A stretch of 32,000 nucleotides of DNA, taken from contig NC_010546.1 in assembly GCF_000017845.1 (NCBI RefSeq), forward strand, positions 3,600,001 through 3,632,000, read 5' to 3'. Below the pieces are notes generated by a model that did not search any database, was not told the DNA's origin, and saw only the letters and a program-made list of their open reading frames with translations. The position numbers and the translations under genes were made by a program. This DNA is from Crocosphaera subtropica ATCC 51142. GTDB lineage: Bacteria > Cyanobacteriota > Cyanobacteriia > Cyanobacteriales > Microcystaceae. This document shows, one piece after another, positions 11,569 through 17,739 of the stretch (its first letter is position 1; each line of letters opens with the position of its first letter).

Positions 11569-12700
11569 ATGATTCGTTTTGCTAGTTTTAATGCTTCTTT
11601 AAACCGTAATTCAGAAGGTGAATTAATTGCGGATTTATTGACCCCTAATAATGAACAAGGTCAAACGGTTGCTGAGATTATTCAACGGGTCAACCCTGAT
11701 GTTATTTTAATTAACGAATTTGATTTTGATGGAGTCGGTGATGCTGCTCAACTATACAGTAATAACTATTTAAACGTTAGTCAAAATGGGGTTAATTCCA
11801 TTGACTATCCTTATTTTTATGTTGCCCCATCTAACACAGGAATTGCATCAGGATTTGACTTAGATAACAATGGAGAAGTTGTTACAAATCCTGGAGAATT
11901 TGGCTATGGAAATGATGCTTTCGGCTTTGGCAACTTTCCTGGTCAATTTGGTATGGCAGTGTATTCAAAATATCCCATTGACTTTAGTAATGTTCGGACA
12001 TTTCAGACTTTTTTATGGAAGGATATGCCGGATGCTTTATTACCGGTTGATTCGGTTAGGGGGGAATCTTATTATTCAGAGGAAGAGTTAAATAGTTTTC
12101 GTTTATCTTCTAAGAGTCATTGGGATTTACCAATATTAATTGATGGAGAAACTGTCCACTTTTTAGTCAGTCATCCCACTCCGCCGGTATTTGATGGAGA
12201 AGAGGATAGAAATGGGAGAAGAAACCACGATGAAATCCGTTTTTGGTCAGATTATATTACTCCTGGAAAGGGGGGTTATATTTATGATGATCAAGGAAAC
12301 TTTGGGGGGTTAAAAGTAGGGGAAAAGTTTGTCATTGCAGGGGATCAAAATGCTGATCCTTTCGATGGAGATAGTGTTAACAATGCCATTAATCAATTAT
12401 TAGATAATCCTTATATTAATACCTCTGTTACCCCAGAAAGTGAGGGGGGTGTAGATGCTTCTAATAGACAAGGGGGAGTTAATGATAATCATATCGGTGA
12501 TCCTAAGTTTGACACAGCAGACTTTAATGATAATAACCCTGGTAATTTACGGGTAGATTATGTGTTACCTTCTGAAAATTTAGAGATTAAAGAAACTGGG
12601 GTTTTTTGGCCAACTTCTGATGATCCATTATTTGATTTAGTGGGAAATTTTCCGTTTCCTAGTTCTGATCATCGTTTAGTTTATACAGATGTTAATGTGA
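11569..12700 (+). other. Endonuclease/exonuclease/phosphatase (EEP) domain
   Basis: The motifs are IRFASFNASLNRN, VILINEFDFD, HFLVSHPTPPVFDG, IAGDQNADP and the terminal SSDHRLVYTDV. Together they form the EEP N / E / D / D-N / SDH series. Confidence 0.8.

Positions 12701-17739: not shown

Follow-up and report, generated by a model that had tools for sequence, protein, structure and literature searches.

How a 2056-residue chain of phosphoesterase domains lacking any N-terminal signal might reach organic phosphorus (P) outside the cell, and why so many catalytic modules should be joined in one protein, are the questions raised by a gene on the chromosome of Crocosphaera subtropica ATCC 51142 (formerly Cyanothece 51142). 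The gene lies on the + strand at 11569..17739 of the window, by which we mean the whole 32-kb stretch of DNA that was analyzed (NC_010546.1 3,600,001-3,632,000). In genome coordinates it is NC_010546.1 3611569..3617739, locus CCE_RS16505, and its product (WP_009545337.1 / ACB52843.1 / UniProt B1WZU4) is labelled “phytase”. Reading from sequence, we consider it fairly probable that this product is a P-starvation exoenzyme with several catalytic modules, which is exported C-terminus-first by a type I system and encoded within a three-gene phosphatase island.

The five-domain chain and its active sites

Reading-frame analysis recovers a single open reading frame (ORF) with an ATG start and 0 internal stops; an in-frame TGA five codons 5' of the ATG leaves no room for a 5' extension. 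A Pfam scan identifies, in order and each far over its gathering score, an EEP (endonuclease/exonuclease/phosphatase) domain, a Phytase-like domain, a beta-propeller phytase (BPP) domain, and the PhoD_N and PhoD domains, thereby bearing out the first-pass annotation, which had read EEP, phytase-like, BPP and PhoD segments in that order in one ORF. As for a possible frameshift or stop artefact, the same order is found in one ORF in the orthologues P0016, P0020, P0085 and P0119 from complete or near-complete genomes, and hence the single ORF is not a product of assembly. The count of four different phosphoesterase folds, made at first sight, has to be lowered: since the Phytase-like and BPP domains are both beta-propellers, the chain comprises three fold classes, namely EEP, the beta-propeller (twice) and the PhoD metallophosphatase. 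The linkers between the domains are short, at about 19-26 residues, and an NCBIfam scan of the protein returned as its sole matches the phytase-like model and the PhoD equivalog, both far under their cut-offs. In the alignments described below, EEP, BPP and PhoD each retain their catalytic and metal-binding residues, which are conserved throughout the family.

The EEP domain spans residues 1-376 (11569..12696, +), as delimited by Pfam, a structural model and alignments, and matches Exo_endo_phos (PF03372) over residues 26-368 (1.3e-30; 107.2 bits against a cut-off of 24.5). N8, D259, N261, D330, D367 and H368 are invariant in both of our family alignments, of 34 and 61 sequences, respectively; E50 and H202 are invariant in the former, and E50 is conserved in at least 90% of the latter. 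The AlphaFold2 (AF2) model of residues 1-388 (pLDDT 85) displays a generic EEP fold with matches to EEP structures down to E 5e-11. The closest of these in the PDB are an uncharacterised EEP protein, an AP endonuclease, a sphingomyelinase, TDP2 and DNase I, with target-normalised TM-scores of at most 0.69 and identities of at most 16%. The fold search was considered as a guide to the substrate class (nucleic acid, lipid or inositol phosphate) and set aside, as its matches are at the level of the fold only. The domain resembles ExeM and NucH in being an extracellular-type EEP enzyme, and an RTX-tailed ExeM/NucH relative is encoded directly upstream of the target orthologue in locus L003; however, the EEP domain of the target gives no match to the ExeM/NucH models.

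The Phytase-like domain that follows (residues 395-737; 12751..13779, +; Pfam and AF2 model) matches PF13449 at residues 409-722 over model positions 1-284 of 284 (1.5e-89, 301.1 bits). Its AF2 model (residues 395-737, pLDDT 94.6) is all-beta and predicts a beta-propeller, and many Asp and Glu residues in it are invariant in the family. Nearly all matches of this model in the PDB are beta-propellers, among them CylK, WD40 proteins, PAL, paraoxonase and strictosidine synthase, with TM-scores of 0.4-0.5 that speak for the fold level only. With scores of about 0.5 or lower and generic propellers alone, the fold search was likewise rejected as a guide to the substrate, and we found no biochemical characterisation of a PF13449 propeller in the searchable literature. 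An invariant D-P-E-G-I...SSEG block in this domain (residues 480-497) echoes the D-V-E-G-L...SSQG block of the BPP domain (residues 992-1014), which is the site of D258/E260 in the Bacillus phytase. This weak DxEG...SS[EQ]G echo hints at a shared ancestry of the Ca2+ sites in PF13449 and BPP, but it is not significant in the pairwise alignment (E 0.3), and neither is a BLASTP comparison of the two domains (E 0.24).

The BPP domain (residues 763-1120; 13855..14928, +), delimited by Pfam and structure-sequence alignment, matches Phytase (PF02333) at residues 763-1104 (6.9e-78; 262.7 bits against a cut-off of 21). The collinearity with Bacillus PhyC that had been proposed for this segment holds against solved structures: residues 764-1120 align with residues 21-348/355 of the Bacillus phytase 1POO at E 8.6e-60, and 1H6L and 3AMR are matched as well. 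D770, D771, K791, R839, Y879, E941, E957, D992, E994 and D1048, which are invariant in 34 family members, correspond in order to D55, D56, K76, R122, Y159, E211, E227, D258, E260 and D314 of TS-Phy, residues that reportedly have Ca/catalytic and phosphate-binding roles (Shin et al. 2001). Three positions are substituted in the target, namely K77 by N, K179 by A and E338 by S (Bacillus numbering). By its family, collinearity and active-site residues, we predict this domain to be a Ca2+-type beta-propeller phytase. It shares with the Bacillus BPPs (PhyC/TS-Phy; 1POO, 2POO, 1H6L, 3AMR) the full-length collinearity and the DxDDPAI and NNVD blocks. However, the Bacillus enzymes are stand-alone, Sec-secreted proteins of ~355 residues, whereas the target domain is internal to a leaderless chain of 2056 residues.

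The PhoD_N domain, which is FN3-like, lies at residues 1129-1211 (14953..15201, +; PF16655, 8e-17, 62 bits against a cut-off of 30), in agreement with the earlier estimate that PhoD starts about 1100 residues into the protein, and it contains the ASGD...VLWAR motif said to open the PhoD-like segment, at residues 1131-1145. The catalytic domain proper (15274..16608, +; Pfam and alignment with 2YEQ) matches PhoD (PF09423) over residues 1236-1539 (4.5e-47; 161.3 bits against a cut-off of 27), with a family-conserved extension to about residue 1680. Residues 1128-1522 align with Bacillus subtilis PhoD (2YEQ) at E 1.7e-23. The two share the PhoD_N domain, the metallophosphatase fold, the Tyr position of the tyrosinate-ligated Fe3+ and the remaining metal-site positions that align in the GD..Y, DDHE..N and D.H blocks. 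The target differs from the B. subtilis enzyme in lacking a Tat signal, in having Asp (D1228) at the position of the Fe ligand Cys180, in having Asp at the equivalent of Asn272, and in that the occluding C-terminal helix is unaligned, the match stopping near residue 401/527. An aspartate subfamily of PhoD and the Asn-to-Asp variant have both been described (Rodriguez et al.; PMC4223295). The NCBIfam model for the B. subtilis PhoD equivalog gives 115.3 bits against a cut-off of 1000, and we classify the target PhoD, by its aligned site residues and this score, as an ordinary member of the Asp subfamily and not an equivalog of the B. subtilis protein.

The missing leader and the probable route out of the cell

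The proposal that PhoD is here without its Tat signal is upheld, the domain being internal and the start of the protein having neither an RR motif nor a hydrophobic segment. In the N-terminus, MIRFASFNAS..., residue 2 already belongs to the first EEP strand, and the maximum hydropathy over the first 60 residues is low. To place this in a family context, we surveyed the 120 closest protein clusters (90% identity) among the matches listed, for which all named sources are cyanobacteria. A search for orthologues with the same domain order, suggested with the first description, finds the order EEP-Phytase-like-BPP-PhoD_N-PhoD in over 110 of these clusters, at 51-91% identity. In 118 clusters the EEP strand begins within about 25 hydrophilic residues of Met1; of the remaining two, one entry is truncated at the N-terminus and the other is extended there by 930 residues. 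Every listed EEP-first cyanobacterial member is leaderless, and the proteobacterial family members are leaderless with RTX-type ends. Clear Sec/Tat signal peptides are seen on stand-alone EEP orthologues of 60-66% identity from Actinomycetota, Chloroflexota and Gemmatimonadota (a Streptomyces sequence, for example, has ...SRRTALASLAGAALAG...). The Chloroflexales fusions also carry signals: the full chain has a lipobox in L012 and a Tat-like RR in L049, and an EEP-Phytase-like-BPP version in L033 has a Sec-like signal. Because signals are present on these Chloroflexi fusions and on the actinobacterial stand-alone EEP orthologues, the family as a whole is predicted to be extracytoplasmic, and its cyanobacterial members would use an export determinant other than an N-terminal signal. 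As a separate observation, the fusions L012 and L033, from metagenome-assembled genomes of Chloroflexaceae, terminate in ...LYLPIVAR or ...LLYLPIVASE, which may serve to sort or anchor the protein by its C-terminus.

These data bear on a reading in which the protein is an intracellular enzyme for the cytoplasmic turnover of inositol phosphates, nucleotides or polyphosphate-linked esters, which we regard as hardly credible. The lack of an N-terminal signal and of secretion genes in the window would suit such an enzyme, and a review, citing Luo et al. 2009, notes that alkaline phosphatases predicted to be cytoplasmic are highly prevalent in the genomes of marine bacteria (PMC11665274). However, the signal peptides on the orthologous fusions and the stand-alone EEP orthologues of Chloroflexi and Actinobacteria argue against it, and an unregulated nuclease/phosphatase would be harmful in the cytoplasm. 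The Ca2+ sites of beta-propeller phytases are unsuited to the sub-micromolar Ca2+ of the cytoplasm. The PhoD Ca2+ sites are likewise unsuited to it (PMC4223295), and the Cys-free composition, the RTX-like module and the HlyB/HlyD genes near relatives, taken up below, all point outside the cell.

The composition of the target is extreme, with 0 Cys, 348 Asp and Glu against 111 Lys and Arg, and a net charge of about -237. Across the 120 homologues only 12 Cys occur in 237,706 residues, as against 1.05% in the other ORFs of the window. HlyA and CyaA contain no cysteine either, and the absence of Cys together with the extreme acidity in the family is as expected of type I substrates. Such substrates lack an N-terminal signal, leave the cell unfolded and take up their structure when they meet Ca2+ outside it (PMC3034196, PMC8277102), and RTX-type phytases, phosphatases and nucleases have been predicted among them (Linhartova et al., 2010; PMC3034196).

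Beyond the PhoD domain, repeats, alignment with neighboring proteins and HMMER searches delimit an RTX-like beta-roll and cap module at residues 1682-1860 (16612..17148, +), which ends in ...SDNFFFS. It contains two canonical GGxGxD nonapeptides (residues 1751 and 1771) along with degenerate ones, and these are succeeded by an ...ITDF..G.D.I... cap. After it come a low-complexity linker rich in Asn, Asp and Glu, recognized by composition (residues 1861-1907; 17149..17289, +), and a C-terminal domain (residues 1908-2056; 17290..17736, +), in which the DUF4114 (PF13448) hidden Markov model (HMM) matches residues 1986-2052 (17524-17724). This match (37.4 bits against a cut-off of 27) was missed by the whole-protein Pfam scan and is visible only when the last 176 residues are scanned alone. 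An exhaustive HMMER search over 1.84 billion representatives finds the RTX-like module in 1434 representative proteins. Where the match reaches the end of the module, that end lies at most 12 residues from the C-terminus in 99 of 121 carriers (82%), usually in the form [DN]F[VA]F[AG]-COOH. Cysteine is lacking from 125 of the 150 best module-carrying representatives, and a hydrophobic N-terminus is present in merely two of 115 full-length-looking carriers. From these counts we infer that it is the terminal module of a leaderless, Cys-free class of proteins. The target belongs to the minority of carriers with a further domain after the module, which is several times DUF4114; the combination of the module with DUF4114 recurs in the unrelated proteins P0145, P0168, P0178 and P0184.

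A link to type I secretion emerges from the gene neighborhoods of relatives. A distance of 0.3-4.7 kb separates an ABC transporter gene from that for the phosphatase in L003, L018, L024, L027 and L058, and one of 9-12 kb in L017 and L023; a gene for an HlyD adaptor lies beside the transporter gene in L003, L018, L024 and L027. The L003 transporter scores 757.6 bits with the NCBIfam model type_I_sec_HlyB, above the cut-off of 725.55, and in its C39-like domain the catalytic Cys is replaced by Ala; its N-terminal cNMP-binding domain suggests regulated secretion. The phosphatase of L003 is the full chain with PhoD, and six reconstructed Nostocales ORFs are shuffled variants without PhoD. Those of L024 and L027 terminate in DUF4114, lack RTX repeats and adjoin HlyB/HlyD genes. 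Though it concerns a minority of loci, the adjacency of HlyB/HlyD genes to the relatives is far above chance. The cluster in L003 (6638-21503) successively encodes an ExeM/NucH-like nuclease of LTD+EEP+RTX architecture, the target orthologue, a PpiC-type rotamase, the HlyB-type ABC transporter and the HlyD adaptor.

The target thus resembles the RTX exoproteins (HlyA, serralysins, lipases) in being leaderless, very acidic and Cys-free, in having GGxGxD-type repeats capped by ...ITDF..G.D.I..., and in that its relatives adjoin genes for HlyD and for an ABC transporter of the HlyB type whose C39-like domain is inactive. It differs from them in that its repeat block is short and sub-threshold, its module is internal, preceding DUF4114, and its window holds no secretion genes. 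On balance, type I (HlyB/HlyD) export is a plausible route for the target and, as we read these features, the best supported one.

Several observations weigh against this reading. Within the 32-kb window there are no ABC, MFP or TolC genes of a type I system, and a 326-residue ABC ATPase encoded at 25874-26854 was rejected as the exporter, as it has no membrane domain and gives no match to the HlyB query. HlyB/HlyD genes are in the vicinity in 7 of about 45 cyanobacterial loci, of which six are from Nostocales and may owe the arrangement to shared ancestry. Among the loci examined, no tail-less orthologue was seen beside a type I system. The HemolysinCabind HMM scores 18.4 bits on the target repeats, under its 23-bit cut-off. 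Canonical type I signals are in the last 50-60 residues of the substrate, and ~196 residues, including DUF4114, succeed the module in the target. By segment BLAST, 71 of the 120 closest clusters have no tail beyond the five-domain core, and many core-only orthologues are complete proteins of ~1680 residues that stop right after PhoD; as so many orthologues are tail-less, the RTX-like module is not a universal export determinant of the family. Finally, unfolded export would mean that the PhoD metals are loaded outside the cell, which is in tension with the insertion of Fe3+ in the cytoplasm that has been used to rationalise the Tat export of PhoD (PMC4223295). The first-pass annotation had presumed export by an “RTX cassette”. 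What survives of this is the pair of canonical nonapeptides and a C-terminal RTX-type route as the best available explanation; the remainder of the block is degenerate, sub-threshold and internal rather than C-terminal, it cannot be the export determinant of the whole family, and the window lacks type I genes.

An alternative that we consider unlikely, yet by no means negligible, is export by a non-classical route, with DUF4114 or the C-terminal region of PhoD as the determinant; the enzyme would then be anchored to the surface or the exopolysaccharide, be released in outer-membrane vesicles or use an uncharacterised ABC system. Consistent with such a route are the internal, sub-threshold module, the lack of an RTX-like tail in most orthologues, the recurrence of the module with DUF4114 in P0145, P0168, P0178 and P0184, and the DUF4114-ended, RTX-less proteins of L024 and L027. 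A DUF4114 protein is also co-induced with phosphatases in Nodularia, and leaderless proteins are common in cyanobacterial exoproteomes, for which vesicles have been invoked (PMC4390845). However, the DUF4114-ended proteins of L024 and L027 themselves adjoin HlyB/HlyD genes, favoring type I export there too, and throughout the family the lack of Cys and the extreme acidity are those of type I substrates.

The phosphatase island and its upstream region

Two further phosphatase genes lie to the left of the target in the window, both on the - strand and both assigned by Pfam and alignment. The nearer, transcribed divergently from the target, encodes a 1976-residue protein with Alk_phosphatase, GDPD and Phytase-like domains and the RTX-like module (5051..10981, -), ending in ...DFAFA. 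The other encodes a 755-residue protein with an Alk_phosphatase domain and the module (1917..4184, -), ending in ...DFVFA. Both proteins are leaderless, have 0 Cys and carry the module at their very end. The target module shares 46% and 42% identity with the last 178 residues of the 1976- and 755-residue proteins, respectively, and the modules of these two are 84% identical to each other. By these alignments, the target and its neighbors constitute a three-gene phosphatase island sharing one RTX-like module. The two neighboring genes are separated by a spacer of 866 bp (4185-5050, GC 0.29), in which the Pho-box-like score described below is not above chance (3 matches of at least 19/24 against 1.8 expected).

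Cyanobacterial Pho boxes consist of at least three repeats at 11-bp spacing, which stand in place of the -35 element upstream of the -10 hexamer. We scored three 8-bp PyTTAAPyPy(T/A) repeats at 11-bp spacing, with a threshold of 20/24 and shuffled controls. Of the six triple-repeat matches that reach this threshold in the 32-kb window, four fall within the 587 bp preceding the gene, where 0.18 are expected from the shuffles. Two Pho-box-like arrays were delimited here by the repeat score. The first (11275..11326, +), in 11-bp phase, reads CTTAAATT-ata-CTTATAAA-cct-CTTAACCT-ttt-AATAATTT-tac-TTGATTTT, with a TATAAT -10 hexamer in phase after it at 11330-11335. The second (11343..11383, +) reads CTTTACCA-aac-TTTAACCC-cat-TATTATTT-tga-TTTAATCA. 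The upstream regions of 33 orthologues yield 12 matches against 0.62 expected, often in the form TTTAACCT-N14-CTTAATCT. In the Nostocales loci L016, L021, L024, L025, L027 and L032, we observe TTTAACCT-N14-CTTAA(T/C)CT, that is, Pho-box-like octamers 22 bp apart, 150-430 bp 5' of the start. Tempering this, a strict search for CTTAACCT-N3-CTTAACCT with up to 3 mismatches gives 0 matches, and the support for Pho boxes consists of the enrichment of a degenerate motif alone. We regard the gene as a likely member of the Pho regulon, with these arrays as candidate SphR/PhoB sites. A different kind of element in the same region is a GC-rich hairpin, CCCTGAACGCAGGG, at 11129-11146, flanked by T-runs on both strands and about 150 bp upstream of the start of the 1976-residue gene, possibly a terminator-like element acting in both directions or else an attenuator.

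Modular combination of PF13449 is known from Nodularia, in which nsp6490 (GDPD and phytase-like) and nsp7010 (an “atypical alkaline phosphatase” of the PF13449 family) are, like the 1976-residue neighbor, built in this way; unlike the target, none of these three joins EEP, BPP and PhoD. In Nodularia, the genes with the strongest induction under P limitation include those for PF13449, GDPD-phytase and DUF4114 proteins (PMC9846622), the Nodularia genes and the DUF4114 protein being up 2.5-5.5 log2-fold (PMC3610870, PMC9846622).

Farther to the right, the window encodes a 664-residue protein-arginine deiminase (PAD 1.7e-152, with a PAD middle domain; 20351-22345, -) and, ~1 kb from it, a four-EF-hand calcium-binding protein (23363-23905, -). 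To our knowledge, animal-like bacterial protein-arginine deiminases are uncommon. A psbA copy at 24075-25145 (-) was considered as an atypical sentinel D1 and rejected, given its canonical D170, E189, H332, E333, D342 and A344.

Fusion, shuffling and phosphorus acquisition

The reason for the fusion could lie in a hand-over of substrates along the fixed domain order, as in the sequential processing of organic P first envisaged, or the chain could be a polyprotein cut at its linkers after export. The strong conservation of the EEP-Phytase-like-BPP-PhoD order would favor this, as would the short linkers of about 19-26 residues and the complementarity of diesterase and subsequent monoesterase chemistry. 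However, the relatives shuffle their modules extensively: SurE or GDSL domains are inserted, BPP or Phytase-like domains are doubled, and PhoD is replaced or dropped. Furthermore, EEP alone and EEP-Phytase-like exist as complete proteins, and we see no sign in the sequence of channelling or of a protease site. An arrangement observed in Leptolyngbya sp. JSC-1 (L001/L007, 15200-19771) pairs a tail-less orthologue with, directly after it, a 1523-residue protein of choice-of-anchor-I, Phytase-like and EEP domains, by its domains a further shuffled member of the same toolkit. Sequential processing is unsupported, and this frequent shuffling points to a loose set of tools and away from an assembly line with a fixed order; we rate both hand-over and polyprotein as improbable.

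Shared export appears to explain the fusion better than a hand-over of substrates does. In the type I reading, P limitation would lead SphR/PhoB to bind the Pho-box-like repeats at 11275-11383 and switch the gene on. The unfolded chain would then be exported in one step, C-terminus-first, by an HlyB(CLD)/HlyD/TolC-type system encoded elsewhere in the genome. High external Ca2+ would fold the beta-roll, the BPP domain and the PhoD site, the enzymes having been inactive in the low-Ca2+ cytoplasm. Once outside, the modules would work side by side on different kinds of dissolved organic P, BPP on phytate and other polyphosphorylated substrates, PhoD on mono- and diesters, and EEP on diesters. DUF4114 may keep the enzyme on the surface of the cell or within its layer of exopolysaccharide. 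The fusion would reflect an economy of export, as a route that reads nothing but a C-terminal module could take along however many catalytic modules without leader or Cys are placed before it, in keeping with the extensive module shuffling in relatives.

In a wider and more tentative reading, which we hold to be possible though rather doubtful, cyanobacteria and some Proteobacteria would have moved a set of phosphoesterases including PhoD from Sec/Tat to a C-terminal, type-I-like module, giant multi-enzyme phosphatases being the consequence and DUF4114 being compatible with, or read by, HlyB-type exporters. If this is true, the Asp-subfamily PhoD site either assembles its metals outside the cell or needs no iron, giant “Swiss-army” phosphatases arise since one C-terminal module exports any number of Cys-free modules, and DUF4114 is a previously unrecognised terminal domain. 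Should export be unfolded and tail-first, PhoD would take up both Fe3+ and Ca2+ outside, which bears on the iron limitation proposed for PhoD (PMC4223295).

The architecture is already annotated in RefSeq and UniProt and has been catalogued: Table S2 of a 2025 study of Crocosphaera P stress (PMC12260270) prints the string ‘Exo_endo_phos Phytase-like Phytase PhoD_N PhoD’ and counts it as PhoD. Our literature searches found no papers on this architecture, its missing leader, or the expression or activity of orthologues, including those of Trichodesmium, Crocosphaera and Cyanothece. The protein is not a new kind of system, in that nothing in it falls outside known enzyme and secretion families; it is an uncharacterised member of the modular cyanobacterial P-stress phosphatases and of the RTX-like leaderless exoenzymes. 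Surveys count the family simply as “PhoD” or “phytase”, though it is widespread in cyanobacteria and would give phytase, mono/diesterase and further phosphoesterase activity from one transcript and one export event. Crocosphaera and its relatives fix nitrogen in P-poor seas, and the pools of organic P within their reach affect the productivity of the ocean.

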